From the NCBI GenBank assembly GCA_963744145.1, contig CAVUSO010000001.1, forward strand, positions 6,624,001-6,688,000: DNA of 64,000 bases, written 5' to 3'. The notes below the pieces were generated by a model. That model made no database searches. It had not been told where the DNA came from and worked only from the letters and a program-made list of their open reading frames with translations. This document shows positions 8,415 to 63,375 of the stretch, one piece after another (position 1 is the stretch's first letter; the number at the start of each line of letters is the position of its first letter). The stretch comes from an uncultured cyanobacterium. GTDB taxonomy: Bacteria; Cyanobacteriota; Cyanobacteriia; Cyanobacteriales; CAWUOF01. The translations under genes were made by a program, and so were the position numbers.

Positions 8415-8505
8415 GGCGTTGCTTAATCAGGGTATGAAAATCAATCGGGGCGCATGGCCATGCGCCCCTACAAATTATTTATTCATACCGTAAATCAGCA
8501 ACACC
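8415..8505. mobile_element. 91-bp MITE (GGCGTTGC termini) with internal hairpin
   Basis: Imperfect TIR GGCGTTGCTTAATCAGGGTATGAA / TTCATACCGTAAATCAGCAACACC; 8-bp TSD AAATGCCT (8407-8414, 8506-8513). Confidence 0.9.
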
Positions 8506-8565
8506 AAATGCCTAACCATGCAAATGAAGGGAGCGTCGGGTTTTTCCATGTTGTAAAATGTTCTG

Positions 8566-8586
8566 AAACATCATATGATCTGATGT
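8566..8586. promoter_or_regulatory. Putative FadR/GntR operator (second copy at 9317-9339)
   Basis: AAACATCATATGATCTGATGT precedes the regulator; AAACATCTGATGATCTGCTGT precedes the MFS gene. Confidence 0.55.
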
Positions 8587-9273
8587 ATGACCAGTAAACC
8601 GCTACGAATTCAACGTCAACCTTTAGTCGATCAGGTGATCGAACAGTTGCAACAACGAATTGCCCAAGGCGAATTTGAAGTTGGTGCAAAATTTCCGTCA
8701 GAGCCTGAACTCACGGATTTACTCGGTGTCAGTCGCTCAACGCTTCGAGAGGCAGTGCGAGTCCTGGTTCATATAGGGCTTTTAGAAGTTCGCCAAGGAG
8801 ACGGTACCTATGTTCGAGCTAAGACCGCGATCGCTGAACCATTAGAGCGCCGACTCAAACGCGCTGCTATTCTGGAAGTTTATGAAGTCCGGCGCATTCT
8901 GGAATTAGAAATTGCCCGTTTAGCTGCACAGCGACGTGACAAAACTGATCTGGATCAAATGCAGAAAAGTCTTCAGCAACGGAAATGCGCCCGTGAAATC
9001 GGTGACGAGGTTGCCTTTTTGAATGCTGATATTGCTTTTCATCAAGCGATCGCGGCTGCTAGTAAAAACGCTGTCCTGATTGAGTTGTATCAAACCTTTT
9101 CCACTGCGTTACGGGATGCTCTTGCTCAGTTAGCCACAGACGCTGAAATTGACCGTGCCGATCAAGCGATGCTCCACGAGCGATTACTTGACGCAATTAC
9201 CGCAGGCGATGCGGAAGCGGCAGAACAGTGGACAGCTGAATTCCTCGACCAAATTTTACTACAACTGGGCTAA
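8587..9273 (+). CDS. FadR/GntR-family transcriptional regulator
   Basis: PSEPELTDLLGVSRSTLREAV HTH; FCD domain (ADIAFHQAIAAASKN). Confidence 0.9.
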   Translation: MTSKPLRIQRQPLVDQVIEQLQQRIAQGEFEVGAKFPSEPELTDLLGVSRSTLREAVRVLVHIGLLEVRQGDGTYVRAKTAIAEPLERRLKRAAILEVYEVRRILELEIARLAAQRRDKTDLDQMQKSLQQRKCAREIGDEVAFLNADIAFHQAIAAASKNAVLIELYQTFSTALRDALAQLATDAEIDRADQAMLHERLLDAITAGDAEAAEQWTAEFLDQILLQLG

Positions 9274-9353
9274 TTGCCCTGTTAGATTCAATCGCCATTT
9301 ACCTGATTGCCTGGATAAACATCTGATGATCTGCTGTTTTGAGGTATTTCCAA

Positions 9354-10556
9354 ATGAATGATTTTCTTAGGACTCGAAAATTCATCGATACTCGCCTACT
9401 CGCAGTGTGGCTCACAGGTTTTTGTCCATTCCTGGTTATGTATGTCACACAGCCACTCTTGCCTGACTTTCAGGAGATTTTTCATGCGACTGCGGCACAA
9501 GTCAGTCTCACCGTGAGTGCAACCACGATCGCCGTCACCCTTGTTGCCCCGTTTATCGGTCTACTTGCTGATTCTTGGGGGCGTAAGCGGATTATTGTTC
9601 CAGCAATTTTTGCTTTGTCCGTGCCGATGTTCCTAGCAGCAACGGCTTCTGACCTAAATACTCTCATTCAATGGCGTTTCATTCAGGGACTTTTCATTCC
9701 AGGAATCTTCACAGTTGCGTTAGCTTACATTGGCGAAGAGTGGAATCGCACCAAAGTGGGTTCAGCGACAGCCGCTTATGTGTCTGGTAATGTTTTTGGT
9801 AGCGTTTCTGGGCGGGTACTGGCTGGATTTGTTGCAGAACGTCTCAACTGGCATTGGTCGTTTGTAGCGCTAGGATGCTTGCTCGTCCTGGGTGGGATGG
9901 CAACTTGGCAATGGCTACCTCGATCACGTCACTTTGTCCGTCAGCGCAACCCATTAGCCTCTATTCGCAGTTTTACGAACCATCTCCGTAATCCAAAACT
10001 CCTTGCTGTTTACGCGGTTGGCTTCAACACTCTATTTGTATTTGTTAGTACCTTTACATATATCACTTTTTATCTAGCGGCGGCTCCTTTCCATTTAAAC
10101 ACTGTAGCACTAGGCGTACTCTTTTTAGTTAACTTGCCTGGTGCAGTCATCACCGCAATGATGGGTCGATCGATTGACAAAATTGGGCAACGTTTGACCG
10201 TGCTAATTGCGGTCGGAGTTTCCTGTTTTGGCATTCTGTTAACATTAGTGCCGATGCTAACAGTTGTATTGATCGGATTAATGCTTTGCTCAATCGGAGT
10301 CTTCCTCTGTCAATCTGCTGCTAGTAGCTACATTGGGGTTGTAGCAGGTTTTGCGCGTTCTTCTGCCGTCGGTTTGTATGTTAGTTCCTACTATCTAGGT
10401 GGAACAGTTGGTGCTGCCGTTCCTGGATTATTTTGGGCGGTAGGGGGTTGGATTGCTTGTGTCGTGCTAATTGTCATGATTCAAATTATAACGATTGGTT
10501 TTGTAGTTTGTTTCTGGCGCAGTCAATTAGCAAAGACACCTAAAATTAACACCTAG
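9354..10556 (+). CDS. MFS transporter (YnfM-like)
   Basis: GLLADSWGRKR motif A; about 12 hydrophobic segments. Confidence 0.9.
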   Translation: MNDFLRTRKFIDTRLLAVWLTGFCPFLVMYVTQPLLPDFQEIFHATAAQVSLTVSATTIAVTLVAPFIGLLADSWGRKRIIVPAIFALSVPMFLAATASDLNTLIQWRFIQGLFIPGIFTVALAYIGEEWNRTKVGSATAAYVSGNVFGSVSGRVLAGFVAERLNWHWSFVALGCLLVLGGMATWQWLPRSRHFVRQRNPLASIRSFTNHLRNPKLLAVYAVGFNTLFVFVSTFTYITFYLAAAPFHLNTVALGVLFLVNLPGAVITAMMGRSIDKIGQRLTVLIAVGVSCFGILLTLVPMLTVVLIGLMLCSIGVFLCQSAASSYIGVVAGFARSSAVGLYVSSYYLGGTVGAAVPGLFWAVGGWIACVVLIVMIQIITIGFVVCFWRSQLAKTPKINT

Positions 10557-10656
10557 TATTTTGCAGAGCGATCGCGATCGCCACTGCCCCTCTAGCCGCC
10601 TAACAACCTTGTTGCCACGGAACATACCTTCAAAGACAATTGAATTTGCTCTAATG

Positions 10657-11385: not shown

Positions 11386-11389
11386 TCTT

Positions 11390-12055: not shown

Positions 12056-13210
12056 AGGTGAATCTCCTAATTGAAATAGTTGTTATTGGGTTAAGATAAA
12101 CGACATATTGGTATGGTGCAATAGCCAATTTATAGATTTTATACCAGTCCAATTAGGAGTCAGATGGATTTAGTCATTTCCCTCAATCGCCAGTCGGTAA
12201 TTCCTCTATATCAGCAGCTTGTAGAGGAGCTACGACTTGCTGTGTTACAGAAACGACTTAAGCCAAACCAAAAATTACCACCAACCCGTGTTTTGGCTAA
12301 GTCCCTAGAAATCTCCCGTGCGACTGTTACCCAAAGCTATGAGCAGCTATTGAGTGAGGGATATTTTGAGGCTCGTTGTGGTTCAGGAACGTTTGTTTGT
12401 TCTCGACTACCTGAGGAATATCTAAAGCCAGAATCCGTCGCTCAAAGCAAATCAGAACTATCTGAATTACCGATCCTTTCTCGATTTGGCACAGATATTT
12501 TAGAGGTTAGTCAACTGGAAGTTGCAGAACCTGAAGATGAAATTAGTTTTCGGTTTGGTAGTCCTGCTGTTGAACAATTTCCGATTAAGTTATGGCGAAA
12601 ATTACTTTCTCGTCACTGTGATAATTCCTCTACATTATTGAACTATAGCCCTGATCCGGCTGGATATATGCCGCTCCGAATAGCGATCGCGGACTATCTA
12701 GGTCGCTCCCGTGCAGTACAATGCAGTGCAGAACAGGTCATTATTGTTAACGGTTCTCAACAAGCTTTAGATTTGATTGCGCGACTCACGCTCAATCCAG
12801 GGGATTGGGTAGCGATCGAAGACCCAGGTTATTTGGGTGCACGTAATTGTTTCAAAGGACAAGGAGCCAAATTACAACCAGTTATAGTTGATCCAGAAGG
12901 CTTAGATGTGGAATTTCTTAGCCAATTTCGCCAGTCATTCAAACTACTTTATGTCACACCATCTCATCAATTTCCAACTGGAGCAACGTTATCATTATCG
13001 CGCCGACTAGCACTACTGCAATGGGCACAGCAAAGGAAAACATTAATCTTAGAAGATGATTATGACAGTGAATACCGCTATGGCGATCGCCCCATACCAG
13101 CTTTACAAGGACTCGATCAACATAACACAGTGATATACGTGGGTACATTTTCCAAAATCCTTTTCCCATCCTTGCGGATTGGCTATTTAGTTGTACCTTC
13201 TGTATGGATA

Positions 13211-15118
13211 CAGCAATTCTCATTTTAAAAAAAATAGAGTATTAATCCCGATTTGGGAATTGAAAATATAGTACAAAATAACCAGTTTTTCAGGCAGAGG
13301 CAATGGCTAAAAAACAATTGGGTCAATATCTAAGTATAAATACTCAATAGAATCGAGGATGGCCTGACAACGAACGAGGGAAATCCAGTTTGATAGTTCG
13401 GTTTTTAGAATAGGGAATTCAAGGAAAATAAAAATTTATAATTGTGATCAGATGAGGTATAATCGGTGAGTTAAAAATCTGACAGCACGTTAAATTACTC
13501 AAACATGGCTCAAAAAGCAGCGACCCTAGAAATCCCTGAATTAATCGAATTTTTACGTCAACAATTACATGACTTACCTGATGAAAGGAAACCTGGAAAT
13601 AATACGAAATACCAGGTAGAAGATGCAGTGATGGCTGCATTTTCAATCTTTTTTACTCAGTCAGCATCTTTTTTAGACCATCAGCGGTTAATGAAAAGCA
13701 ATAAAGGAAAAGATAACGCAGAAAGTTTATTTTCAATTAAGAAAATTCCCTGTGATAATCAAATCAGAAATTTGTTAGATCCGGTGCCAGCAGCTACTAT
13801 ATTTATGGCTTTTCAAGAAGTCTATGAATGGTTAAATAAAAACGGAGTTTTGAAAAAGTTTCTCTACTTAGATGAAGAAATTTTAATGGCTTTAGATGGC
13901 ACCGAATATTTTTCATCACAGAAAATAAATTGTCCTCATTGTAACCGTCGTAATCATCGCAATGGAACTACCACTTATTTTCATAGCTGTGTTACACCTA
14001 TTGTAGTTTCTCCTAATCAAAACCAAGTGATTAGTTTAGCGCCAGAATTTATTAAAAACCTGGATGGTCATCAAAAACAAGATTGTGAAAATGCGGCGGT
14101 TAAAAGATGGTTGAATAAGAATCATCAAAATAAATATGGTTATCCTGTAACCCTTTTAGGGGATGACTTATATGCCCACCAACCTATTTGTGAATTAGCT
14201 CTAAAACAAGGATATAATTTTATTTTTGTTGGTCGAGAAACTTCGCATAAAACTTTATATGAATGGCTAGAGTTTTTAGAAAAAAGTGGAGAAGTTACTA
14301 CCATTAAAAAGCCCCAATGGGATGGGCGAAAAAATCTCCTGTATCGTTATCGCTATGCTAATAGAGTTCCCTTAAAAGATGAAGAATCAAGTCTCGAAGT
14401 TAATTGGTACGAAGTGACTGTTATTAATGAGGAAACACAGAAAATTATCTACCAAAATAATTGGATCACTAATCATAAAATCACTGAAAATAATATTGAA
14501 GAAATTGTCAAAGCTGGGCGCAGCAGATGGAAAGTTGAGAATGAAAGTAATAACGTTCTTAAAAATCACGGTTATAATTTAGAGCATAACTTTGGTCATG
14601 GTGAAAATCATTTGTGCGAGTTATTATTGTCTTTGAATTTACTAGCTTTTTTATTTCATACTGTTTTGGATTTAGTTAATTACATCTATCAAAAAGTTCG
14701 TGACCTATTAGTACGGGCGTATTGCCATACGCCCCTACTACTTTCTTTAAGGATATTCGGACCTTATTAAAATATTTATGGTTCAAAAATTGGTCAGATT
14801 TATTCTCATTTATTCTCACCGAGAATGTCCCATTAAAAAAACTAAATTCTAGTTGAAAAATATCAATATATTGAAAGAGGAAGGGTAGGGGCGTATTGCA
14901 ATACGCCCGTACTTTTTTATCAAAAAAAACCTAAAAAATGGGTGAGAATTTCATCTGGATGTATCAGTTGAAATCGATTTTTCATGGACAAATTTCTGAA
15001 AACTTGTCTATCTTCAGCGTCGGATGATAATTATCTGTCAAAAAATCATGCTTCGACACAAGTTCTCTATTTAAATAAGAGAATTTTCTCTGATTTTTTT
15101 TCAAAATGAGAATTGCTG
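13211..15118 (+). mobile_element. 1908-bp IS (ISNCY-like DDE)
   Basis: TIR CAGCAATTCTCATTTT / AAAATGAGAATTGCTG; 9-bp TSD GTATGGATA (13202-13210, 15119-15127). Confidence 0.92.
13505..14852 (+). pseudogene. DDE transposase, C-terminus frameshifted by a hairpin insertion at 14711-14738
   Basis: ALDGT, LGDDLY, GRSRWKVENE motifs; the native tail TFFKDIRTLLKYLWF... continues in another frame after the hairpin. Confidence 0.8.
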
Positions 15119-15628
15119 GTATGGATACCTGTAGTGAGTAGAGCTAAATGGTTGTGCGATCGACAATCTCCAACTTTAGAACAATACGCACTTACTGATT
15201 GCCTGATAGAGGGGTATTTTGAACGACACATTCGGAAGATGCGCCATCTCTATAATCATCGTCGTCAAGTTCTAGTGAATGCTCTTAAACATTATTTTGG
15301 CTCGCGAGTCATGATCTTGGGCGAAAATGCAGGCATTCATTTGATGGCAAAAATTGAGACAGTATTACCGGATGAAATTATCATTCAAAACGCTGCAATT
15401 AAAGGTGTTGGCTTGATTAGCGCACAAGGTTATTATTTGACTACTCCTAAAACGGGAGAGTTTATTTTCGGTTATGCCCAGCTAGATGAAACTCAGATCG
15501 AGCAAGGGATTCAAAAGTTGTCTCTGGTATGGAAGGAATAAAAACAAAATACTCAACATTAGCAAATTATAATAACAAATATTGATATACTGTTAAGTGC
15601 AGTATAAAATCTCAGAGGTTAAAAACTC

Positions 15629-15847: not shown

Positions 15848-15848
15848 G

Positions 15849-16279: not shown

Positions 16280-16970
16280 TTAGGAAACTCCAGCGCCGAT
16301 GGATTGAATCATTACATCAGAATAATATCCCTTTGGCTTCAAGCCGACTGGCTTACCTCCATGCAGCATTCCTTGAATCTCTGGCTCAAAGAAGCTATAG
16401 GGAAATTGAGGCTCAGGACGACTGATTGCTTTAAGGCGATCGCTCAACTCTGTAGGAATCTCAAAATCTAATGCTTTGAGATTGTCCTCTAATTGCGATC
16501 GCTTCGTCGCCCCCACAATCACGCTCGCCACCCCCGGTCGATTCGCTGTCCAATTGATGGCAACTTGAGCCATACTTCGATCCAGTTCTTTGGCCACGTT
16601 TTCCAGTTCCGCCACAATTTTCCAGTTTCGCTCTGTAAATTTTTGAAAGGCTGGGTTTTGGCTGTCTTTGAGGGCTTCCAATCGTCCTTCTCCAGTAAAT
16701 GAACCCTGACTCGGTTTATATTTGCCGCTTAAAAGTCCGCTTGCTAAAGGGCTCCAGACCATTACCCCCATCCCAAGTTCCAAACCGAGTGGGACAAATT
16801 CCCGTTCAATGTTTCGTTCAACAAGAGAGTATTCCAGTTGCAGAGTATTAAGCGGTTCGTAACCACGCCACTGGGCAAGTGTTTGTGCTCTTGCGGCATA
16901 CCAAGCTGGTGTGTCACTCAATCCCACATACCGCACTTTACCAGATCGAACCAGATCATCAAGTGTTCGC
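16280..16970 (-). pseudogene. Aldo/keto reductase, 5'-truncated at the IS right end
   Basis: RTLDDLVRSGKVRYVGLSD, WSPLASGLLSGKY; the N-terminal part is absent. Confidence 0.85.
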
Positions 16971-18798
16971 TTGATACTCTCAGGTCTAAAGACACAGAGA
17001 TTCTTGAATAGTCCAGAATCTGTACGGGCGTATTGCAATACGCCCCTTCAAAGGCGCGTACAAAACACCTCTACTGATTTCACTCAGGCATAGCCTAAGA
17101 TTCACCGCTACTTTTCTTAAAATATTAGCCGCAGCATTCGCGTCTGCGTTGATTTTTATGCCATTAGAACTGACATACAAACCACGTTTAACTCTTTTTC
17201 CTGATGCTGTCCATTCTGTGGGTTTTTCACCATAACTTGGGATGGTATCAGCATCTAAAAAACTAGCTTTGCTGGTATAACTTTCTTCAGTTTCAAGAAA
17301 CTTAATGCCGTACAATGTACAAAGTTCTTGAAGTCTTGCTTTGAGTCTTGCCGTAGGGATTTGGTAGGGGCGTATTGCAATACGCCCGTACTGATTAGTT
17401 TTTTTACCTAACTCAATGCCATCTTTTTGTCCTTTGTTCCAACCAAAAACTAAAGTCCCTATCCCATTATTTAAACAGTGATTTATCACTAGCCGAGCGG
17501 CTTTGTTAATAGCATCCCTCATCTGTCTATTCCGTTTCTCAGTCATTGCTGCTAAACGATTAGACCAAAAACCTTGAGGTTTATTAGCTTTGAGTTTAGC
17601 TACTTGTTTGTTGTACCATTGATTGACTGACTTTAAGTGTTTGCCATCAATAATAAAACTTGTCCCTACATTACTAACGGCTGTCAACCAGTTATTTAAA
17701 CCGTGATCTAACCCTAAGCACTTATCTGGATCTAGGACTGGTTTTTCGACTAGGACTGGGTAGACAAACTCTGCATAAAAACAACCGTTTCTAGGAAGTA
17801 TTCTCACCTCTCTAATACCAATTCACCATGAAGATACATTGATGTATATTGATCTGTGGGTGAGGGTGGGTTTTGATGATTAGTAGGTAAATGTCAAACA
17901 TCTCGGTGAACCCGCCCCTACTACAAAAACCCGCAAATAGAGGATAAAATTGGTAGGGGCAGGTTCACCAGTTAATTCTGCCACCAACAGATCACCATTA
18001 TAAACCTGCCCTGGCCTAACAGATCAACCTCAGATTAAGTGCAATTTCATAGTTAATTGGTATAAGAGTGTGAAAGTCTAGGTTAGTTGGCATCGGCAAG
18101 AAAAACTCTTTGATCCCAAACCAAGCATTGATCTTCAATCCTAAAGGAAATCTAATCTTTCCATCAATCAGCCTGAGTGCCCGTTTGGGATAGGCAATTA
18201 ATTGATACCCTGGTTTTCGATAATTGGGTAGTTTTGGTTTAGTTTCAAGTTGACCATTTAGCCACAATCCCCGGTACGGGCGTATTGCAATACGCCCCTA
18301 GGGCAAAAGAGCTAATTGACTCCCCCACTGAGATACAAGTTTGCGTTGCGGCATCGGATGGAAGTGCAGAGAAATGTATATTTTTCGTAAGGGTTCTTAC
18401 TAGGTCAAACTTGGTGACATACCTTTGAGCTTTAAACCAGATTTGACGCGCATAGTAGGTAGCACAGTTGTGGAGTTTGTTAGACTCAGAACAAATAAAT
18501 TCAAGAATTGCTTTTAACTCTGGTTCAGCACTGATCAAATTTTGCTGAACACCTAACGGTATTTGGGGATTTTTTTCTGTTTTCTTTCTTTTAACCATTT
18601 TTTGTTTCTTTTTTTTCTAATCTTAACTATAGCTGATGTTTCACAAAAAGCAAGTCTTTGTGATCAAAATAATGTTAAGATTAAGAAATATTTTCAGGTG
18701 GTTAAAACCACTTGGGTCATTTACCTCTCAGGCTCGCCGTGAGCGGAGTCGAACGGTCTAAAGAACCTGAGTTTCCCACTTACCAGATGTTTTTTATG
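16971..18798 (-). mobile_element. tnpB: IS200/IS605-family (IS1341-type, tnpB-only) element, multiply disrupted
   Basis: TnpB pieces 18598-18245, 18267-18066 and 17812-16986 (GLDHGLNN, EESYTSKAS, NADANAAANI). Right end ...CTTTAGACCTGAGAGTATCAA; left-end hairpin CTCAGG...CCTGAG at ~18727-18771. The left boundary is approximate. Confidence 0.85.
17816..18062. mobile_element. 247-bp MITE with IS630-type ends, inserted in tnpB
   Basis: TACCAATT...AATTGGTA termini, TAA duplicated on both sides; excision restores FHTLREVRIL. Confidence 0.9.
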
Positions 18799-19052
18799 AT
18801 TCAACCACAAGTTCTTGGGGAGCAACGTTGTGAGCTTGAAAAATTGCTAAATCTTGCCGAGAAACCTGGGTATGATTTAATACTGGTTCGTTATTGATAG
18901 TGTGGTCTAGCTGCATTTCCGCTCCTAATGACCTGGGGCGTACAAGACTGATAACTGAATTTCTTCTAGGTCAACACTAAGGTTCTTAAAAGAGCAGTCG
19001 GCTTGTCAACATTCTAGGGCTTCTTTCGCAATCCAACCCACTAACCAACACC

Positions 19053-19881: not shown

Positions 19882-20022
19882 TCAAGCCCGTAGGTTGATC
19901 AATCTATGTCCACCATCAGTTCTAACAGATTCGATTTTTCCATCCTTTTCCCATCGTCTGATCCTGTCCACGCTGACAGCTTTAAGTTCGGTCAGTTCCC
20001 CAATGCTTATTAATCTATCCAC
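19882..20022 (-). pseudogene. IS607-type TnpA N-terminal MerR-like HTH remnant
   Basis: Manual translation: MDRLISIGELTELKAVSVDRIRRWEKDGKIESVRTDGGHRLINLRA*; not in the ORF track. Confidence 0.65.
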
Positions 20023-20043
20023 CGTTTTACCGAGAATTTATCC

Positions 20044-20135
20044 GGCGTTGCTTAATCAGGGTATGAAAATCCTGTAGGGGCGTATGGCAATACGCCCCTA
20101 CAAATTATTTATTCATACCGTAAATCAGCAACGCC
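20044..20135. mobile_element. 92-bp MITE, same family as 8415-8505
   Basis: Same TIRs; 8-bp TSD ATTTATCC (20036-20043, 20136-20143); internal GTAGGGGCGTATGGCAATACGCCCCTAC. Confidence 0.92.
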
Positions 20136-20231
20136 ATTTATCCTTTTAATTCTAGGTAAGCCTAGGTATTTTCGCAACTGCAAACACCCTCAAGTACCCT
20201 CCAATAACTACCATTACCAATAACTGAAACT

Positions 20232-34119: not shown

Positions 34120-34139
34120 TATATTAGTCCTTAATATTG

Positions 34140-34270
34140 ATTAGACAAGAAAGCAAAAGTCATGGTGATCAATTTACTGGACAGGCAAGATGCCTGTCCC
34201 ACAAGAGTTTTTTTTGTTGTTGTGGGACAGGCATCTTGCCTGTCCTAGTTATTTTTGCAAGAAGTTTATT
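34140..34270. repeat. MITE-like element with paired GTGGGACAGGCATCTTGCCTGTCC hairpins
   Basis: Two inverted copies at ~34179-34202 and ~34222-34245; further copies at ~39058-39081 and ~42725-42748. Confidence 0.7.
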
Positions 34271-37200
34271 TAGAATCCTAGTCCTTTTTTTCTTGCTAAA
34301 ACTCCATCTACCCAGCGTTTTTCATCGGTGCCTGTGGGATACAATGCCGAGAGTGCCTGGGCTAATGTCCAGAAGCGATTGTCACTTCCTACACCGTCAT
34401 CGACTAAGAAGCGTTTCAGGGCTTCACTGCGTCCAGCAGCAAATAGAATCATGGTTTGGTGGATGCGATCGAGTACAGTTTTACCTTGATTCTCAGTATT
34501 AGTATCGCCCCAATTTTCTACATCTTCATCGGTGGTAATACTTAGTGTATCAAAGAGACTCAATTGCTTTTCGCCTTTTTTCGGGCGTTTGGTGGGGGCT
34601 TTACCTGCGTCTTTGCCGAATAGATAGGGCGATCGCTCTGATACTGGTAGCAGTCGCGCTTTATCTCCCTTTATTTGGACAAGACTGGTAAGCATTTCTA
34701 GGTGTGCGCCAAGTCCCTGAGCAATCTTACGAGCAGCATCGAATTCCAAAATGTAACCGCTCATTTTGGCTGATTTTTTGGAGGTATCCTCATCATCTTC
34801 GTCATCGTTGGTACTATCATTGGGGCTGCTTGCATCAGTTTGCTCAGTACCAGTGGAAAGCGTCCAGAACCACATCGCAGTAAGACGAGCATCTTCTTCA
34901 AAACCTGTAGCATCAGCACCTGAGAAAATCATGCTGAGGGCTTCTTTAGAAACCGCAGCCCAGACATATTCGAGATATTCTTTGAGGGTGACAATTTCGC
35001 CAGAGGCTTTTTCTACGCTGTCATAACGGGAGAAGATTTCTAAAGCAGGACCGAGACAAGCAAATATGGCATCAGCTCCAACTACACCTTCACTAGCAAG
35101 TCTGGGCATCCAGTCGTGAATACATTGGGGGAGTTGTTGCAATACATCCCGCCAGTCGCCTATTTCTTTAGTGCTGCGGGGACGACAAACTATATGAACG
35201 GATGAGGCGAGGGAAGCTGTACCCATTGCGTTCATTCTGCTACCCATTTCGGTATCTATTGACCATGACCCTGTAATTGTCCAACCTGCATCTACCATTG
35301 CTTGTAATTGTGCTTCCCAACCTGATGTAGATTTATGGGCAAAGACAATTACACCAATACCATTAGAAGATAAAATTCGACATCCCTCTGCCATTGCTTT
35401 ACCCATTTGCCTTTCAAAATAGGCTTTATCTTTTCCTCTATTTAGATCAACAATACATTCTTCTTCTTTTGGAGTTAATTCATCTTCAAAAGAGATTCCG
35501 ATAAATTTGGGTAAAGTTCTCTTTAGCCACACATAAAAAAAATCAGATAGATCTGAATATTCAATACTATCGAAATATGGAGGATCACTAATAAATGCTT
35601 GAATAAAATCATCTGGTAGGGGGTGAGTAGCGGCTGAACTTCTTTCTATGGAAGCAACAGGGTAGACGATTGTACTTTCTCGCTCTAAAACTTCCAGAAC
35701 ATTTTTCATTGTCACGCTATAGTCACCGGCTGCATTAGAAACAGGTGAAGTCTCGGCAAAGTCCCAAGCCATTGGAATTGCTTGCCTTGTGAATAAGTGA
35801 CCAATTCGATCCATTGAGGTTTGCCAAGTTACCAAAGAACACATAACATCAGCAATTTTGCTCACTCCAATACTCAAAACTGTTTGAACAGCGATCGCCA
35901 ATCCTTGATCACTATCAGCTAATTTTTTTCCTACTTTTTGCACTAATCTTGTTAATGTCGTTAAAGCTAAAGATTGACGAGATGTAAATAAATTTCCGAA
36001 TTGATTTATTCCATAAGACTCTAAACGAAAACTTCTACCTTGAGGCGGTACTGACTCATCAGGAACTAAGCTTAATACTCCCTTATGTTCGCCTTTCCGT
36101 TTTTCTAACTCTTGTTTAGCCCTAATTACAGCCTTTAAATCCTGCTCATTAGGCAACCGATAAAAACGCCCCTGAGTTTCTGTTTTAGTAGTCACCACAC
36201 AAAATAACCGAGCATCATCAGCACCCCCATGACGTGCTTTTAACTGTATTCTTACCGAAGCTACAGGAGTAGTAAAACCACAACAAGGACAAGTCGCCGA
36301 ACCTCTTTTAACAGTGCCATCTAAACTCGGATTTTTGACCTCAATTTCTGGATGATCAATAACTATCCATTTACCTTTTTGCTTTTCAATAATCTCAAAA
36401 TCTATTCGCTTATTTTCTGGTTTAGGAATAATCCGTAAAGCAACAGACCGATTACTTTTTTTCGCTAACCACAGCGATCGCATTAACGGCACTTCTGCTC
36501 CACAACCCGGACCCTCACAAACAATCGTTCGCGCCCATAAATAGGCAATAGGTGTACTTCCATCTGCATCTTTAGGATAAAATTCGCTTAATTCTTTTTC
36601 GGCTTCTTCCTTAACCCACTCTCCCCATTTTCGCACTTCATCCGCTAGGGTTTGACCGTATTTAGGAATATATTCCAACACCACTTTATTTAATAAAACC
36701 GCTACTGGATTCAAGTCAGAAGCAAAAGCATCCGCACCCACCCGCAAAGCTTCTAATGGGATTGAACCACCACCCGCAAAAGGATCAACTACCAGAGGTC
36801 GCGTCCCGATTTCACCACCTAACGCTTCATGAGCAACCTGAGTCAGCGATCGGGCTGTTGTCAAATAATCTGACTGGGTAGAATTATCCCAATTAGCAAA
36901 ATCTGCAATAAAATCTAATAAGCGATCGCGGAGAATATTAAGATGTTGGGAATTCTTAGGATCTATCTGATTTTCCGTTTTGGCTAAAAATTTCCATTTA
37001 CTCCAATTTTCAGGAGAACAATGATTAGCTAAATCCTTATCGATCGCTACTTTTTTAGCAAAATTATTAATAATGCTAGCAGCTTTATCCCGAAAATCTT
37101 GAGGACAATTTTCATCAACCGGATCAATCCATAATGCCGCACAAATCACCGCTCGACACGCTGCTAAAGGTCGCCTTGCCCACCATATATGCAGTGTGGA

Positions 37201-37299: not shown

Positions 37300-37401
37300 T
37301 TAAGGATAAGTACCGCGATCGAGAAAATAATTATTGCCCTCTGCTGATTGAGGAGCAACACCATATTCAACCACAAGCAGCATTTATTATGAAGTATAGC
37401 A

Positions 37402-37704
37402 GTTTTGTCTGTGGTGTTAGATGGGGTGCGTTCATTTAGGTGATCTGTGGGGTTGGACGGGTTCGTTAATGTTATTTGTGTGTGGCAAGGTTGATGGTGA
37501 ACCCGCCCCTACGAATCCTGGTTTTTGGCGATAAATTCTGATTTTTGGTGATAAATCCTGATTTTTGGCGATCGCTTTGACCAGAAATAACTGGTTTTGT
37601 CTGTGGTGTTAGATGGGGTGCGTTCATTTAGGTGATCTGTGGGGTTGGGCGGGTTCGTTAATGTTATTTGTGTGTGGCAAGGTTGATGGTGAACCCGCCC
37701 CTAC
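37402..37704 (-). repeat. Left REP array (2 units, 192-bp period), inverted relative to the right array
   Basis: GAACCCGCCCCTAC ends at 37512 and 37704; reverse complement of the units at 38312-38993. Confidence 0.92.
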
Positions 37705-37746
37705 AGGTGATATAATGTTCGGCTATTGGATTATTGACCAAAAAAT

Positions 37747-38307
37747 ATGAAATTCAATCCTGATATCCATCATCGACGTTCTATTCGTCTATCTGGATAT
37801 GATTATAGCCAACCAGGTGCATATTTTGTGACAATTTGTATAAGGCAACGTGAGTGTTTATTGGGTGATATTCAAGAGGGGAAGATCCGGTTAAATTGTT
37901 ACGGTGAAGTCGTTAACTTTAATTGGTTTAATCTTCAGAAAGTGTATGCTAATATTGAATTAGATTCTTTTGTGATTATGCCGAATCATATTCATGGAAT
38001 TATCCTGCTCAAAGAGCATAATAAAGATCATAGCTTATCGGAAATTGTGAGAGGTTTAAAAACATTTTCTGCCCGTCGAATTAATCAAATCCGCTTGGTT
38101 AAAGGAATACCTGTATGGCAAAGAGGATATTATGAACATATTATTCGTAATGAGATAGCATTCTCAAAAATTCAAGAATATATTATTAATAATCCGTCTA
38201 AATGGGAAACCGATGAAATGCACCCATCGCAAAAATTTTCCAATTCCCAGAAAATCAATATTAAATTAGATCATAAAAATGTATTATCGATGAATTTATT
38301 ATCATAA
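37747..38307 (+). CDS. REP-associated tyrosine transposase (RAYT/TnpA-REP, HUH Y1)
   Basis: RRSIRLSGYDYSQPGAYFVTIC, VIMPNHIHGI (HUH), WQRGYYEHIIR, YIINNP. Confidence 0.92.
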   Translation: MKFNPDIHHRRSIRLSGYDYSQPGAYFVTICIRQRECLLGDIQEGKIRLNCYGEVVNFNWFNLQKVYANIELDSFVIMPNHIHGIILLKEHNKDHSLSEIVRGLKTFSARRINQIRLVKGIPVWQRGYYEHIIRNEIAFSKIQEYIINNPSKWETDEMHPSQKFSNSQKINIKLDHKNVLSMNLLS

Positions 38308-38311
38308 TAAA

Positions 38312-38993
38312 CCAGGATTCGTAGGGGCGGGTTCACCATCAACCTTGCCACACACAAATAACATTAACGAACCCGCCCAACCCCACAGATCACCTAAATG
38401 AACGCACCCCATCTAACACCACAGACAAAACCAGTTATTTCTAGTCAAAGCGATCGCCAAAAATCAGGATTTATCACCAAAAATCAGAATTTATCGCCAA
38501 AAACCAGGATTCGTAGGGGCGGGTTCACCATCAACCTTGCCACACACAAATAACATTAACGAACCCGCCCAACCCCACAGATCACCTCAATGAACGCACC
38601 CCATCGAACACCACAGACAAAACCAGCTATTTCTGGTCAAAGCGATCGCCAAAAATCAGAATTTATCGCCAAAAATCAGGATTCGTAGGGGCGGGTTCAC
38701 CACCAACCTTGCCACACACAAATAACATTAACGAACCCGCCCAACCCCACAGATCACCTAAATGAACGCACCCCATCTAACACCACAGACAAAACCAGTT
38801 ATTTCTGGTCAAAGCGATCGCCAAAAATCAGGATTTATCGCCAAAAATCAGGATTCGTAGGGGCGGGTTCACCATCAACTTTGCCACACACAAATAACAT
38901 TAACGAACCCGCCCAACCCCACAGATCACCTAAATGAACGCACCCCATCGGACACCACAGACAAAACCAGTTATTTTTGGTCAAAGCGATCGC
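38312..38993 (+). repeat. Right REP array (4 units, periods 192/172/172 bp)
   Basis: GTAGGGGCGGGTTCACC starts at 38321, 38513, 38685 and 38857; each pairs with a downstream GAACCCGCCC. Confidence 0.95.
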
Positions 38994-39115
38994 CATAAAA
39001 CCATCTCAATTCCCAGGATTTTTCTAATAGCGATCGCGATGATATTTTTTGATCTTTGTGGGACAGGCATCTTGCCTGTCCTATTTATTTTTGCTTTCTT
39101 GTCTAATAGGTATAA

Positions 39116-42535: not shown

Positions 42536-42689
42536 AATTCTTACATTTTAATTGTCTAACCGAGTTGTTTGTAGGTGGTGTTTCAATCGCGATCGCCGAT
42601 TTTAATCTCTATGCTAATTTACGGTAATGTGAATTGGACGGACTAGAAAAAAGTGATCAGAACAGCATTTGACTGAGGTTAAAGTCGCT

Positions 42690-42905
42690 TGTGAGTGATC
42701 TGTGTTGGTTGGGCAGGTTTATGAGTGGGACAGGCATCTTGCCTGTCCGTGATCTATTTGGAGCAGAATTGATTGGTGAACCTGCCCCTACAAATCCTGG
42801 TTGATTGTGATCATAAATTCATTCACCTGCCCCTACAAATCCTGTTAATCTTGTCATCCTCTAATCCTGATCGATTTTTTGGTGAATCCCTGTAGGGGCG
42901 GATTC
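42690..42905. repeat. Cluster of REP-like half sites upstream of the defence operon
   Basis: GGTGAACCTGCCCCTAC, CACCTGCCCCTAC, GTAGGGGCGGATTC and GTGGGACAGGCATCTTGCCTGTCC. Confidence 0.7.
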
Positions 42906-47007: not shown

Positions 47008-48125
47008 CTACGGTGTACACACAAGTTGAGGTAGAGTAAGGGGGTTCGGGAAGTAAGGAGAAAAAACAGTGGAAAATCCAATTTGAATTCATGCACAAGA
47101 GTGCCCGGGAACAGCATTCAGAGATCCAAGACTGGTAAAAAGGGGAGCGAGGTTGTATGCAGCGATGGCACAACATCAATCAGTAAATATTCGGAAAATC
47201 AGTAAAAATCGAGCCCAGCAAGTTGGAGATTACCGATTTTTAGGGAATGAGAATGTGAAAATTGGAGAATTAGTCGTAAGTTTAGGAGAGCATTGCGCCT
47301 TACAAGTGGATGGAAAACACCAGGTCTTAGCGATAGCATGATCGTAGTGAAATTAACTTACAGTCTCACCAAGGGAGATGAAAATCCGAGGGAATTGGAG
47401 TAGTAGGAAACAATCAAGATGTCGGATTTTATCTTCACCCTACACTGGTGTTAGATGCAGAAAATGGCTGCCCACTAGGATTAAGCACAGTGCAATTGTG
47501 GAAGAGAGAACCTGACCATAAAGATCAGAAGGAAAGATCAGATCAGAACTTACCGATTGAAGAACAAGAATCCTATAAATGGCTCAAATCAGCCGAGAAA
47601 ACAGACATTTGTTTCAGTCGGTCTGATGTGAAAATAGTGACTCATATCGGCGCTCGGGAAAGCGATATATTTGCAGAATTTGTCCGCGTACCTAATCAAC
47701 AGAATCATCGATTAATCAGAGTCGCACAAAACTGTCAGCTACTGGATCAGCCCGAGTCTCTGTATACCTATTTAAGTCAGCAACCTTGTCAAGGAACTTA
47801 TCCCGTTGAAGTCCAGGCTGATTCACGGGTTGAACGAACAGCAAGAGAAGCATTACTGTGCAGGGGCGTATTGCAATACGCCCGTACTTGCCCTGGTTCA
47901 AATTCAACGTCCCAAGCATTGATCTGCCGCCGATGATCCGGAAAGTGTCAGTAGGGGCCTATTGCCATACGCCCCTACGGATTATTGCTCGACTGGGTGG
48001 TTGGTCTGGCGCTCGGTCTCAAAAACCGCCAGGAATTACTACCTTAGTGCGCGGACGCGAGCCAATTTCAATCCTCTTTTTCTGGCGGTCAACTCGCCCT
48101 AGGTATGGTTGTGTGTACACTGTAG
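47008..48125 (+). mobile_element. IS4-family element, degenerate and internally deleted
   Basis: TIR CTACGGTGTACACACAA / TTGTGTGTACACTGTAG; transposase fragments YRFLGNENV, ESYKWL, ESDIF, IARLGGW. Confidence 0.85.
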
Positions 48126-48148: not shown

Positions 48149-48745
48149 CTACAAAATATGGTCAAGACTAATTACTAAATCTGGAAACGCAAGGGGTGAG
48201 ATGCTTTCGCCGCGTCTGAATTGTTGGATACTTTCATAGCCGTTCGGACCAGGGTTGCGATATACCTCTAGTACGGGCGTATTGCAATACGCCCCTTCGA
48301 TATCTACGATCCAAAGTTCAATAATCCCAGCTTGACTGTAGTGGACTGATTTTTCATTACGGTCATATTCCACCGTGGTAACCGATACTTCGATTAATAG
48401 ATATACGTCTTGAGGTTGTGGAAGTTGATACCTGTAATCATCTTCCCTCCGTTTCAAAATTGATAGATCGGGTTCTGGTACTAATCCGACCTTTAGTCTG
48501 ACTGGGATTTGTGCTACGACTGAAGCTCGATCATCAAAAAGTTTTGGGAAAATCCTACTCAATCGGATCAAACAGCTTATATGCCCACTACCCATCGGTG
48601 CCATAAGAATAATATCCCCATCAATTAGTTCTGTTCGTTCATCCGGTCCAATTATCCCAACTTCACCCAGCTTGTAATATTCCTCTACCGTGAATTTCTT
48701 TCTTGTTGGTCCTGTTGCTGTAGTTGCTGTTGCTACTGCGGTCAT
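48149..48745 (-). CDS. Uma2-family endonuclease with an in-frame hairpin insertion
   Basis: ELIDGDI, PEPDL, LLIEVS, AGIIELWIVD; GAYCNTP derives from the repeat. Confidence 0.88.
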   Translation of the reverse strand: MTAVATATTATGPTRKKFTVEEYYKLGEVGIIGPDERTELIDGDIILMAPMGSGHISCLIRLSRIFPKLFDDRASVVAQIPVRLKVGLVPEPDLSILKRREDDYRYQLPQPQDVYLLIEVSVTTVEYDRNEKSVHYSQAGIIELWIVDIEGAYCNTPVLEVYRNPGPNGYESIQQFRRGESISPLAFPDLVISLDHIL

Positions 48746-48750
48746 AATTC

Positions 48751-48942
48751 TCACCATCCTATTACAGCTATAGCTTTTGACTTCAATTCTTGATTTACTT
48801 CGAGGTATCGCTGAAGTGTTCTCAGGTCGCTGTGCCCTGAAATATCTTGAATAATTCTTAATGGTATCCCAGCGTTAGCAAGTTGAGTTAGTGCTGTCCG
48901 TCGGAAACTATGAGTGCTTGCCCCATCAATGTTTACCCGAAG
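48751..48942 (-). pseudogene. Tyrosine recombinase C-terminal fragment
   Basis: STHSFRRT...ISGHSDLRTLQRYL (H-x-x-R, H, Y). Confidence 0.85.
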
Positions 48943-53409: not shown

Positions 53410-53450
53410 CGCTGCTTTCCTATATGGTGGTAATTCTGGTCATCGCTACT

Positions 53451-57238: not shown

Positions 57239-57707
57239 ATCATCCCAAATTAGCACTTAGATCTCTTGGTGACACTAGCATTTTCAGCTCACTGTCCCGT
57301 CCAGAGCGCGAGCAAAGATTCAGTAATTGCACCAACTACGCATTTATTCCTAAAGCGTATATCCACCAACTCTGACACTCAATATTATTTATATCGCACT
57401 CCCTGGACATTTTAAATTACTCTATCATTGACGGCTATTCCAGATTAACCACTTTCAGCCACCCACTCAAGTACCTTGTATGATCAAGTCGTAAATCTGT
57501 GACTAGATGTTCCATCTATCCAAGCCATCCTCAGATCCCGATCTATGGAAAAAGCATTTTTTGCTCCGAAGATCTTGTACACTTTTTGGTAGATTTTAAT
57601 CCTAGGAATACCCATGATCCCAATCTGAACCATCTGCTTCTACTATAAGATTCTGCTTGTTTCCTCAATTCTCTGGTCTGATATTTTCTTAAGCAAATTT
57701 TCCAACT

Positions 57708-60453: not shown

Positions 60454-61547
60454 TGGCTCCAATTGTGCGATCGGCAAAATCAAACCGGAAAACTAATTTT
60501 TCCGGTTAACCTGCTACACAAAACTTGGTACTGGAGTTTAGACTAAGCAAAATTGGCCCAGCGAGGTGCTGAGAGAAAAACCAGGGTAGGGGCGTATTGC
60601 TTTTGCGCCCCTACATAAGTAAAGAAATCTTAATTAAGAGGCCACTTTTTGATGATTTTGAAACTGACATGAGCCTTTTTTCACAGTGGGATAGCGAATT
60701 TTGGGAGTGCGGGGTTGGCCAGTTGGCCAGCCTGGTGACTTTCCGCGTCGTTTTGGATGTACTGCGGGTGTATCAATCGTGACCAAAAGTGAGAACATGG
60801 ACTGGGCTACTCGTCCAGGGGTCAAATTAGTCAGAGGTTTTTGCCAAGGTAAGTAAGAGTCTCTGACCAAATCTCTAGCCAGCCATAATTGCCAGGTTAA
60901 CAGAGGCATTAAATCGCTCCAACGGTCACATTGTTCTGGGGTACTCAGGTGGGGTAAAGTCCAATGCAATGTTTGTGAAAGCGAAACGATACCAATGTTC
61001 AATCACAAAACGCCGCAAATATTCCAAACCGATGATTTCCAGGATCAACGGGGATTCACCAATCCACGCTAACCATCAAGGTTTAGCAGAACGACCATTA
61101 CTACTAACCTTAAGTCGTTCCACACAAATCAAGGTCATCTGATGTTCGGCACTATTGGCAAAATGCAAGTTATTCCACTGAGAAAACCGCAATTTCCCCA
61201 GTTTTGGATCATCCAATTCTACCGTCTGGTTTGCTGCCCACCAAGTTTGAGGCTGATTAAGCCTTTTGTCGAGCGTAGTCGAGACATGAAATTTTTGACC
61301 ATGACGATGAGGACGGCCATGACCAGAATAAGCTGGTGGGGCAGAATATAAACAACGATTAGAACGCAGACGCATTAGTACGGGCGTATTGCAATACGCC
61401 CCTACGCAGGCAAATGGGCGGTTTGTAAGACTAAACGGCCACAGCCATATTCTCGGTCAAACCATACTAACGGTCGTTGTGGCAATTGTGTCAGGACTTG
61501 TTCTAACTGCTTGGCAGCTTTACTGATGGGGGTATCCCAACTGGTAA

Positions 61548-62695
61548 TACCAATTCTCTAAATGCCGACTACAGATAGTGCCTCTAATATATAGGCTCGT
61601 CCCGTAATTGAGGCAATTACTTTTGAATTCATCTTTTCTAGTTCTTTACTAATTAAAAGTCTTAATTCATCTAAGTTTCTTGGTAATTCCCATCTCAATC
61701 CCTTTTTGAGATACTGCCATACCTGTTCGATTGGATTTGATTCAGGACAATGGGATGGTTGAAACATTAAAATAACGTTTTTAGGAATTACCAACTTTTT
61801 AGCTTTATGAAAACCACCATTGTCTAACTGAATGATCAAAATACTATCCGAAAAATGCGCGGCTACTAAGTCTAAAAATATCTGAAAGCATTGACTATTG
61901 AGATGAGTAAACTCGTAAAAGAAATGTTCCCCTGTCTTTGGCTCTACTACGCCATAAATATAAGTCGCTTGAAATTTCCATTGCACTTTACCAATTGGTT
62001 TTACCCCACGAATGGTAATTTTTCTCCCACTAATCGTTTTCATGCCGATCCGTGTTTCATCTTGACATAAAAATCTGACTTTATCTCCTAAACTCATTAC
62101 TGTTATGGCAAACCAACTCAGCATAGCTAAGTCCTCCGCCAAGTGATTTCTAAAATTATCTAACTTTTTTTTTGACTGTTCTGTACTTTTCGGCCTGGCG
62201 ATTTTTGGTGAGGCTTTTAGTTTATAATGCACTAATTGATGAACGGTTTTATATTTAGCTTCTATCCCAAGGGTGGATGATAGCCATTGACAAATTTCCC
62301 CATAACTATTAAATCCTTCCTCTTCATTTAGTCGTTTTTCTAAACTTTTTACCGCCCAGTCAGGAATTTTTCTCGGTCGGCCTGTACCCACTTTTTTCCC
62401 CAGATATTTGGCCAATCCTCCTTGACGGTATTTGGCTAACCAATCTTGAACGGTAACTCGATTTCTGCCCAAGATTTCAGCAACTTCTGTGACTGTTTTA
62501 GCTTTGTTTATCTTGAGTAGATATAATGCTTGTAATCGTTCTTTTCCTGGACCAGTTTTTTCCACTGCGAGCAATTTCTTCAGCTCGGCTTCACTTTCCT
62601 TAATGTCTAGGTGATAAACTCCTGCCATATTTTTCCTTCAACTCTACTCAAATTATACTCTACACTATCTGTAGTCAAAGTTGCAAGAATTGGTA
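61548..62695 (-). mobile_element. 1148-bp IS630-family element, apparently intact
   Basis: TACCAATTCT...AGAATTGGTA termini, TAA duplication; excision restores HERITSWDTP of the host transposase. Confidence 0.92.
61558..62628 (-). CDS. IS630-family transposase
   Basis: CQDETR, QLDNGGFH, PESNPIEQVW. Confidence 0.93.
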   Translation of the reverse strand: MAGVYHLDIKESEAELKKLLAVEKTGPGKERLQALYLLKINKAKTVTEVAEILGRNRVTVQDWLAKYRQGGLAKYLGKKVGTGRPRKIPDWAVKSLEKRLNEEEGFNSYGEICQWLSSTLGIEAKYKTVHQLVHYKLKASPKIARPKSTEQSKKKLDNFRNHLAEDLAMLSWFAITVMSLGDKVRFLCQDETRIGMKTISGRKITIRGVKPIGKVQWKFQATYIYGVVEPKTGEHFFYEFTHLNSQCFQIFLDLVAAHFSDSILIIQLDNGGFHKAKKLVIPKNVILMFQPSHCPESNPIEQVWQYLKKGLRWELPRNLDELRLLISKELEKMNSKVIASITGRAYILEALSVVGI

Positions 62696-63375
62696 TAATT
62701 CGCTCGTGTCTTAAGGGTAAGGCCCAACTGCCTGTTGTTTCTGGAATCCAGGCAATGGTGCTGTAGCTATAGCCAATTTCTCTCTTGTTTGTTACCAGAG
62801 CAGGCCGCCGCTTTATGCTCATAAGTACGCTCTCTCAATGTCCTGGCTCTTCTGCCGCCCCCACGCTGGATGGTCCACTGCCAAGATTGGTCGCTCTCTG
62901 ACCGACATCTGCTGAATATACAGTTTCATCAATCCCTCGCGGTCTGGTGCACAGTCTTGTAGCGCTTCGTACACACTTGACCACTCTCTTCGGAATAATG
63001 GGCTTAAGGCCATGTCTGCTAGACAATTGGCGTGACCTGTGGTCATTAGTGCATCCATTAGCTCAAAAGTGGCATCTTTGGCTGGACCTAGCGTAGGGGC
63101 GTATGGCAATACGCCCGTACATATGCTTGTTGACGGAATTCGCTCAAGATTTCATAATTCATGGTAGGCAGATCAATGAGTTTTTTGCAATAATTCTCAA
63201 TTTTCTGCCCCCAGGGGACTCTTTGACAATTACTTCCCTTTTTCTCTCTTATTAGTCTAAACTCCAGTAGTTAATAACTGAAAAATCTCTAGTTAAGATA
63301 GGTTAATTCTTAGCTCTTAATTAAATTCAAGAACTCGTTCAAGCCAAATCCACTTATGAGATAGTAGCAAGAGGA

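Follow-up and report, generated by a model that had tools for sequence, protein, structure and literature searches.

A 28-bp hairpin of probable REP type overwrites bases at its target sites in a cyanobacterial genome, and its asymmetric form is denser in long multicopy repeats

How does a short palindrome come to lie in one mobile element after another? This question is raised by a 64-kb stretch of DNA from a soil cyanobacterium (genome G000, 7.70 Mb, 39% G+C; G000:C1:6624001-6688000), called the window below, in which a 28-bp hairpin is found repeatedly. The hairpin consists of a GTAG foot, an 8-bp stem core and a 4-nt loop, with 12 pairs including the feet and a predicted DNA fold of -12.6 kcal/mol. 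Copies were searched by the 20-nt core GGGCGTATTGCAATACGCCC with cut-offs of at most 3 or at most 4 core mismatches. At up to 3 mismatches the core occurs 11 times in the window (14715, 14889, 17026, 17368, 18278, 20078, 47864, 47955, 48275, 61382 and 63097), and none is expected from 100 shuffles of the window. Two more are degenerate, one at 8448 with 4 mismatches and one at 60590 with 1 indel and 3 mismatches, which makes up the 13 hairpins counted in the original prediction.

The reading favoured here, with a probability of roughly 0.6, is that the palindrome is a GTAG-tagged repetitive extragenic palindrome (REP) of the double-foot type, of the kind that accompanies subclass 2.4 (group 4) of the REP-associated tyrosine transposases (RAYTs). 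Its symmetric form (GTAG..CTAC) would be the ordinary one, and its asymmetric form (xxAG..GTAC), which departs from it at one base, would be derived and recently spread, overwriting WACTT sites and being denser in mobile DNA.

Replacement of target bases at an oriented site

How the hairpin enters DNA can be read from filled and empty versions of the same site. For this, the flanks of each hairpin copy were matched to sibling sequences elsewhere in the genome. Of the 36 families of polymorphic sites, 3 lacked a clean empty copy and in 5 the "empty" copy was another hairpin variant, leaving 28 clean pairs.

In all 28 pairs the hairpin overwrites a few bases instead of inserting cleanly, and in all 28 a target duplication is absent, both as originally proposed. 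The full 28-mer replaces 2-13 nt (7 nt in nine pairs, 6 nt in six, 9 nt in four), and the net gain per insertion is 15-23 nt with a mode of 21. Terminal microhomology is absent at the left junction in 24 pairs and at the right junction in 18. Fifteen pairs have a net length divisible by three and 13 do not. The sequence of the empty site is conserved coding sequence in up to 29 siblings and is therefore the ancestral state, not an excision scar. The foot end is variable, as had been noticed in the window (CTTC, CTAG and GCAG are seen), because target bases beside the junction persist; GAACTTC, for example, becomes GTAC..CTTC. A simple 21-nt insertion at AAC^TT was considered and does not fit the observed junctions.

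The target was analyzed in 25 pairs whose orientation was set only by the asymmetry of the hairpin feet. Here, WACTT is present in 16 of the 25 empty sites and the reverse motif in one, compared with 2.3% of random windows of the same length (P=1e-20). When the 20 pairs with ACT are lined up on it, A occupies position -2 in 16 and T in the other 4, and 17 have T at position +2. The asymmetric form lands on WACTT in one fixed orientation. This motif includes a CT dinucleotide, the site at which TnpA_REP cuts in vitro (Corneloup et al., 2021, PMC8266576; statements on this and the other papers cited by PMC number refer to the parts of them available here).

Habitats of the two forms

In the whole genome, 166 copies are present at up to 3 and 183 at up to 4 core mismatches, 85 of them with perfect cores. 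Copies were grouped by their 45-nt flanks into 112 independent sites, and the same rule was applied to 3000 random positions. Sites in and outside open reading frames (ORFs) are distributed as follows.

Multicopy DNA: 44 of 112 sites; 14.5% of random positions; 2.7x
Single-copy non-ORF DNA: 41 of 112 sites; 10.7% of random positions; 3.4x
ORF edge: 13 of 112 sites; 6.0% of random positions; 1.9x
Single-copy ORF: 14 of 112 sites; 68.9% of random positions; 0.18x

The claim that the hairpin is found only inside mobile elements thus fails genome-wide. A grouping by longer flanks agrees (147 families, 40 multicopy and 74 non-ORF), with the limit that it missed a short miniature inverted-repeat transposable element (MITE). 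A different picture emerges if the two forms are separated.

Symmetric form (GTAG..CTAC), 32 sites: multicopy 5, non-ORF 17, ORF 3, edge 7
Asymmetric form (xxAG..GTAC), 48 sites: multicopy 31, non-ORF 7, ORF 8, edge 2

The habitats of the two forms differ (Fisher P=2.4e-5), and so do the multicopy and non-ORF shares of the asymmetric form (binomial P=0.0016). Long repeats were then defined blind to the hairpin, as DNA of at least 500 bp, at least 85% identity and at least 3 copies, and they take up 5.9% of the genome (457 kb). Of the 48 asymmetric sites 17 lie in them (6.0x, P=1e-8), and of the 32 symmetric sites 2, where 1.9 are expected. Non-ORF non-repeat DNA, 2.7-fold larger with 1226 kb, holds 7 asymmetric sites (17 versus 7, P=1e-5). 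Long multicopy repeats are therefore about 6-fold richer in the asymmetric form than either single-copy non-ORF DNA or the genome as a whole, and Uma2 paralogues are rich in it as well. The symmetric form shows an ordinary REP-like spread in single-copy spacers and as the core of a MITE of about 92 bp. Thus, the proposed enrichment in mobile over other dispensable DNA holds for the asymmetric form and not for the family as a whole (2.7x in multicopy versus 3.4x in non-ORF DNA). Repeats of at least 500 bp at 85% identity or more, whatever their copy number, make up 10.8% of the genome, an unusually heavy load of insertion sequences (IS).

The supply of targets does not explain the multicopy bias, since the density of WACTT is alike across classes (7.4 per kb in IS-like DNA, 6.0 in ORFs and 6.4 in non-ORF DNA). 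The strand of the asymmetric hairpin that starts with GTAC is open in all three frames, and the symmetric form has TAG in one frame per strand. The open frames may ease survival of the asymmetric hairpin in genes; its excess over spacers is not explained thereby.

A stronger version of this enrichment can be put forward tentatively, namely that the asymmetric variant is a hyperparasitic mini-element preferring other mobile DNA. Here, the 28-nt unit would be swapped for about 7 bases at an oriented WACTT, by a two-cut replacement on single-stranded DNA performed by a RAYT or by a borrowed TnpA of the IS200/IS605 family. If this is true, the natural filled and empty pairs would reveal how REPs integrate.

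Pure survivorship, on the other hand, would require nothing but insertion at any WACTT and selection sparing dispensable DNA, the restriction to IS being an appearance caused by an IS-rich window and by IS copies multiplying their cargo. The whole-family figures above are in line with this, the hairpin being as enriched in single-copy non-ORF as in multicopy DNA and depleted in single-copy ORFs. Furthermore, 76 of the 183 copies fold into 40 families under the long-flank criterion, and sibling elements also carry 8 of the 13 window hairpins. However, the 17 versus 7 asymmetric sites speak against survivorship, and the symmetric form thrives in spacers, which indicates that spacers tolerate the hairpin. 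A second genome points in the same direction. Among 401 genomes of the order, the exact asymmetric 24-mer is found in three, with 58 matches in the genome studied here and 8 and 4 in two genomes of one other genus. In G218, one of these two, all four asymmetric copies lie in multicopy repeats, small or about 490 bp, and in one filled/empty pair CTAG-core-GTAC replaces AGTTTA (reverse complement TAAACT). This is a small independent replicate of the pattern, and survivorship alone appears unlikely.

Hairpin copies in the window and their hosts

The hairpins of the window and the elements that host them are listed below; a strand is given where one applies.

8406-8509 and a second copy around 20074: MITE of about 92 bp with ends GGCGTTGCT..; the hairpin is its constant core; 31 matches in the family
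8444..8471: hairpin variant ATCG-GGGCGCATGGCCATGCGCCC-CTAC, core of this MITE (repeat segment 8406-8509); 4 core mismatches; the segment has 18 other copies
13207..15120, plus: IS with a 421-aa ORF (13505-14770); 9 genome copies; splits a MocR-like gene (12164-13228 / 15113-15541)
14711..14738, minus: asymmetric hairpin (GTAC..CTAC on the plus strand) in the 421-aa IS; 8 filled, 1 empty; replaces GTAACTCGAAC, net +17
14885..14912, plus: asymmetric hairpin (GTAG..GTAC) in the 421-aa IS; 8 filled, 1 empty; replaces GAAAG, net +23
16961..18806, minus: TnpB-only IS200/IS605-type element; right end ..GTATCAA; about 13 copies
17022..17049, minus: asymmetric hairpin (GTAC..CTTC) in the TnpB element; 3 full-length copies filled, 8 empty; replaces GAACTTC, net +21
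17364..17391, plus: asymmetric hairpin in frame in tnpB (YGRIAIRPY); 2 filled, 10-11 empty; replaces GACAAAGTTT, net +18
18274..18301, minus: asymmetric hairpin (GTAC..CTAG), only in this TnpB copy; 1 filled, 12 empty; replaces TAACTT, net +22, frameshift
20074..20101: symmetric hairpin at the core of the second MITE copy (repeat 19897-20142); 1 core mismatch
47860..47887, plus: asymmetric hairpin (GCAG..GTAC) in an IS4-like fragment (ORF 47448-47936); 2 filled, 5 empty; replaces TAGTACGTT, net +19
47951..47978: symmetric hairpin (2 core mismatches) in the IS4-like fragment
48271..48298, minus: asymmetric hairpin in a Uma2 gene (48149-48757, minus), with feet GTAC..CTTC; in frame, peptide GAYCNTP; replaces 13 nt, net +15
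60586..60614: degenerate variant with a 21-nt core (GGGCGTATTGCTTTTGCGCCC) and GTAG/CTAC feet, adjoining a transposase remnant
60634-61002, 61076-61375 and 62819-63109: pieces of a broken NF041680-family transposase gene, split by an IS630 (61544-62701)
61378..61405, minus: asymmetric hairpin with perfect core in this broken gene
63093..63120, plus: asymmetric hairpin in the NF041680-family transposase, N-terminal piece; 1 core mismatch; the sole sibling copy is also filled

All 13 hairpins lie in mobile-type or multicopy DNA, which is close to what had been predicted, except that one is in a Uma2 paralogue and not in an IS. Twelve of them are in DNA repeated elsewhere in the genome, but such DNA amounts to 13.1 kb of the window and not to the 9 kb first estimated; the thirteenth (61378) lies in the single-copy remnant of the NF041680-family gene. 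The Uma2 copy at 48271 had been assigned to an IS4 transposed unit, and no evidence was found that ties the Uma2 gene to this unit. This gene (PF05685) is one of about 55 diverged paralogues, and its hairpin site is filled in 4-5 of about 33 of them. Other details of the original prediction were reproduced: the intact IS630 is without a hairpin copy, the in-frame peptides KKTNQYGRIAIRPYQIPTARLK and WIVDIEGAYCNTPVLEVY are exact, and the frame is shifted at 14711 and 18274. The bases replaced in tnpB were read directly from the 10-11 empty sibling copies, without need of the TnpB consensus originally invoked.

Some features of the hosts are added here. The ORF of the 421-aa IS has no Pfam match and a weak match to an IS4 family of NCBIfam (E=0.0012). 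In the TnpB element, a MITE of about 250 nt at about 17812-18066 (some 57 genome copies) breaks tnpB into two ORFs. An aldo/keto reductase ORF (16280-17038) abuts the element, covers only positions 119-289 of the Pfam profile and is probably truncated by the insertion. The right-end region of TnpB elements is expected to encode the scaffold of the guide RNA (omega/reRNA), and the hairpin at 17022-17049 lies about 50 nt from this end in 3 of 11 full-length copies. The cores of the 92-bp MITE vary genome-wide (GCGTATTGCAATACGC, GCGTATGGCCATACGC, GCGCATGGCCATGCGC and GCGTATAGCTATACGC), with both arms changing together and some cores holding two hairpins, which points to compensatory evolution or repeated core replacement. 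Two further repeats of the window, 34124-34276 and 42677-42905, have up to 76 and 28 other genome copies, respectively, and neither has the 28-mer.

The hosts bear on who moves the asymmetric hairpin. If a Y1 transposase TnpA of the IS200/IS605 family did so in place of a RAYT, the heaviest load in and near such elements would be explained. Indeed, 13 of the 48 asymmetric sites lie in 33 kb of TnpA/TnpB DNA of the IS200/IS605 type (a class chosen post hoc), followed by Uma2 genes with 5, IS4-like elements with 3, the 421-aa IS and IS630 with 2 each and NF041680 with 1. Hairpins also cluster in and around two TnpA gene families (C1:5547-5548k, 5991-5993k, 6306-6307k and 7009k), and one TnpB element copy (G000:C1:3370437-3372062) holds five hairpins at five sites, the highest number of any copy. 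However, the element ends (..GTATCAA) and their flanks are without WACTT or a similar hairpin, and WACTT was rejected as the target of the IS605 TnpA since the motif is not seen there. Moreover, a five-copy element with tnpA and tnpB is free of the hairpin, the IS4-like, IS630 and 421-aa elements as well as Uma2 genes are also struck, and in other genomes the 28-mer goes with RAYTs. Movement by TnpA is unlikely on these grounds but stays a live rival of the RAYT.

More doubtful still is a system, serving the host or hyperparasitic, whose role is to disable transposons. The enrichment of the asymmetric form in IS DNA, the shifted frame in 13 of the 28 pairs and the position of hairpin 17022 near the right end of the TnpB element would fit. 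On the contrary, the frame is kept in the other 15 insertions, the asymmetric strand is open in all three frames, and the 421-aa IS with two hairpins is still found at 8 filled copies. Furthermore, a gene linked to the hairpin was not found, the hairpin has also struck 5 host ORFs and Uma2 genes, and the symmetric form lives in ordinary spacers. The transposon-inactivating system once proposed is therefore not upheld.

The same site is found filled in Uma2 paralogues and TnpB copies that are only 73-97% alike in their flanks, and the junctions are then identical and the hairpins 100% identical (a comparison without an empty-empty baseline and with one row mis-oriented). Among three TnpB copies, the distribution of filled sites does not follow a tree. 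Either hotspots or short conversion tracts between copies would produce this. Spread mainly by gene conversion among repeats in place of de novo insertion, for which these observations would speak, is nevertheless highly improbable, as separate insertions are required for no fewer than 28 different sites in unrelated sequences and the oriented WACTT points to a sequence-specific step.

Probable REP identity, candidate enzyme and known systems

The favoured reading, a double-foot REP of subclass 2.4, is based on the structure of the hairpin and on its company in other genomes. The TnpA_REP proteins of this subclass carry the motifs NH[IFV]H, WQ and YIxNNP (Quentin et al., 2018, PMC6006769). Their REPs have three G-C pairs at the base of the stem and are of the "double-foot" type with 5' GT[AG]G and 3' C[TC]AC, insertions of REPs in frame within tnpA_REP itself are described, and the subclass is patchily spread over Cyanobacteria, Bacteroidetes and other phyla (PMC6006769).

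The 28-mer has 5' GTAG, 3' CTAC and three G-C pairs at the bottom of its stem, and it is a high-copy, dispersed, palindromic stem-loop as known for GTAG-tagged REPs. Exact GTAG..CTAC feet are present in 45 of the 183 copies here and in 78 of 128 in other genomes. With respect to an extragenic location, 24 of the 32 symmetric sites are in non-ORF DNA or at an ORF edge, and 39 of the 48 asymmetric sites are in multicopy or ORF DNA. Most copies are single, and inverted doublets, the hallmark of REPINs, are seen only in some MITE cores. Nor is the 28-mer itself a MITE, the whole unit being one hairpin that is never flanked by a duplication in the 28 pairs. As in the IS200/IS605 family its target is specific, but bases are lost at every site.

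The original prediction that the hairpin is a RAYT substrate agrees with its occurrence, exact and in frame, in and beside subclass 2.4 RAYT genes of two other genomes. G007, of a different family within this order, has a RAYT of 196 aa that holds the exact 28-mer just after HuH (CRGVLQYAPT) and at its C-terminus (VGAYCNTPL), and a further copy lies 87 nt upstream. In a metagenome-assembled genome of the Salinibacteraceae, a 238-aa RAYT has the exact 28-mer between HuH and Y, and a second copy lies some 25 nt upstream. A RAYT flanked by the 28-mer, as in a REPtron, is found in these two genomes (G007 and G041) and not in G000.

Elsewhere, the exact core is present at at least 123 loci in Planctomycetota, Omnitrophota, Atribacterota, groups of the Candidate Phyla Radiation (CPR), Ignavibacteria, Capnocytophaga and cyanobacteria, and this wide spread fits a transfer of RAYT genes carrying their own REP. 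An independently assembled public 383-nt contig matches 18139-18521 with 0 differences and spans hairpin 18274, although the run may be the source sample. Since this contig is identical and the exact core is found in so many other genomes, the hairpins are not an assembly artefact. Two unrelated public runs (X2 and X3) hold the hairpin only, within other flanks.

The genome under study contains subclass 2.4 RAYTs with the expected motifs. It has exactly two homologues of the RAYTs that bear the 28-mer, one of them in the window.

37747..38307, plus: RAYT (TnpA_REP), 186 aa; NHIH / WQ / YIINNP, subclass 2.4; NF047646 with 79.4 bits versus a cut-off of 80
38310..38999, plus: tandem array of long REP hairpins GTAGGGGCGGGTTCACC..., with inverted copies at 37387-37757
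C1:4373019-4373594: second 2.4 RAYT; NHLH / WQ / YIQENP; flanked by GTAGGGGCAAAGCAT... hairpins

The RAYT of the window is 42% identical to the RAYT of G007 and, judged by its sequence, is a candidate enzyme for the hairpin. Its own long REP hairpins have the foot and the first 5 stem bases in common with the 28-mer (GTAGGGGCG), and the foot GTAGGGGC is common to three families, namely the 28-mer and the hairpins of both 2.4 RAYTs.

The region 37387-38999 is a complete REPtron, with the RAYT, two inverted repeat units of about 175 nt upstream and about four tandem units downstream. Each unit contains a long GTAGGGGCGGGTTC...GAACCCGCCC hairpin and HIP1 (GCGATCGC) sites, and its segments have 38-53 other genome copies. 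Another RAYT domain (NF047646, 100 bits; DHVH / WQ / YIRQNP, which fits subclass 2.7) is in frame in a methyltransferase-like ORF of 1125 aa at G000:C1:6347661-6351038 (locus L013). It is bracketed by the repeated peptides VGQASSLSI and GNVGQDARPTR, which look like translated hairpins of another REP family. A GIY-YIG nuclease was discarded as a partner of the hairpin because only one of its 6 genome matches lies within about 1 kb of a copy.

Mechanistically, a Y1/HUH RAYT of the 2.4 type would act on single-stranded DNA, cut at CT within WACTT and join the hairpin there. Host repair would close the other junction at the cost of a few bases. DNA that is mobile, break-prone or single-stranded would be more exposed to such insertions, and those in essential genes would be removed by selection.

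Several observations weigh against this reading. A clean cut-and-paste reaction of an HUH enzyme of the IS608 type would delete no target bases, which makes the step at the second junction a conjecture, and the junctions share no single cut position. ACT is absent from 8 of the 28 empty sites. No extra unpairing was seen when the 28 empty sites were compared with 400 random WACTT sites (minimum free energy P=0.61, unpaired probability P=0.17), and a target inside a hairpin loop was rejected on the same statistics. Y1 enzymes are expected to show a lagging-strand bias. The hairpin orientations are 29 plus and 26 minus, and the cumulative GC skew of the genome is without a clear replication axis. 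In addition, no 28-mer is found in or within 2.5 kb of any of the four RAYT-like genes of this genome, and both 2.4 RAYTs are flanked by other GTAG families; as neither holds the 28-mer, the assignment of an enzyme to it in this genome is inferred. On the statistical side, the host classes were picked after the window had been seen, which biases the folds per family upward (63x for the IS605 type, for example), single-copy non-ORF DNA may not be a neutral class, and the site families in diverged paralogues are possibly over- or under-split.

Among known systems, the double-foot REPs of subclass 2.4 are closest, with the same 5' GT[AG]G and 3' C[TC]AC feet, three G-C pairs at the base and patchy spread over many phyla (PMC6006769). 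In contrast to these, the genome studied here has no RAYT carrying or flanked by the 28-mer, and the asymmetric variant with 3' GTAC, the oriented WACTT, the base replacement and the IS enrichment find no mention in the available parts of PMC6006769. The REPINs of Pseudomonas are likewise short palindromes of the GTAG type, and their movement is ascribed to a domesticated Y1 transposase present in single copy (Bertels and Rainey, 2011, PMC3116915), but they are inverted doublets confined to spacers, whereas here a single 28-mer is found and one of its forms enters genes and IS. IS608 and ISDra2 of the IS200/IS605 family also use a hairpin substrate and a short, oriented, specific target without duplication, but insert cleanly 3' of the target (PMC8266576), whereas 2-13 target bases are lost here. 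Rickettsia palindromic elements and in-gene REPs are similar in lying in frame within genes whose function seems to be retained (Di Nocera et al., 2013, PMC3733652). The available parts of this paper are silent on an IS preference or a defined target with replacement, and its supplements hold no GTAG-12, GTAG-15 or GTAG-16 sequences.

A search of the full-text literature with a 16-nt core string of the hairpin gave no match. Small dispersed repeats (SDRs) of heterocyst-forming cyanobacteria, namely SDR4-6 of Nostoc punctiforme, were reportedly described by Elhai et al. in 2008 as mobile hairpin-type repeats of 21-27 nt, and are said to be present in only some of the copies of sequences that are otherwise the same, other repeats among them. 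Much of the present finding may already be contained in that work. Should the same rules for SDRs be stated there, what is gained here would be reduced to a link between SDR-type elements and subclass 2.4 RAYTs. According to citing papers, the target of SDR5 is a HIP1 site, not WACTT, and no SDR is found outside the Nostocaceae (PMC4390886, PMC5861425). The 20-nt core of the 28-mer differs from this by its presence in many phyla, and its likeness to SDR4-6 is by description only.

The kind of element and the in-frame REPs in genes are thus already known (Quentin et al., 2018; Di Nocera et al., 2013). Possibly new are the WACTT rule, the footprint of 28 for 7 bases, the one-base variant with another habitat and the excess in mobile DNA, none of which was found in the available parts of PMC6006769, PMC3733652, PMC3116915 and PMC8266576. 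As the hairpins mark and sometimes break IS, TnpB and Uma2 genes, they matter for the annotation of cyanobacterial genomes.

As late as 2021, the way in which REPs spread was regarded as unresolved (Corneloup et al., PMC8266576). About 28 natural before/after pairs of a single REP family are available in this genome, with an oriented target that contains the dinucleotide cleaved in vitro and a consistent replacement footprint. A symmetric form dwelling in spacers and an asymmetric form invading IS, only one base apart, provide a handle on what makes a REP mobile.

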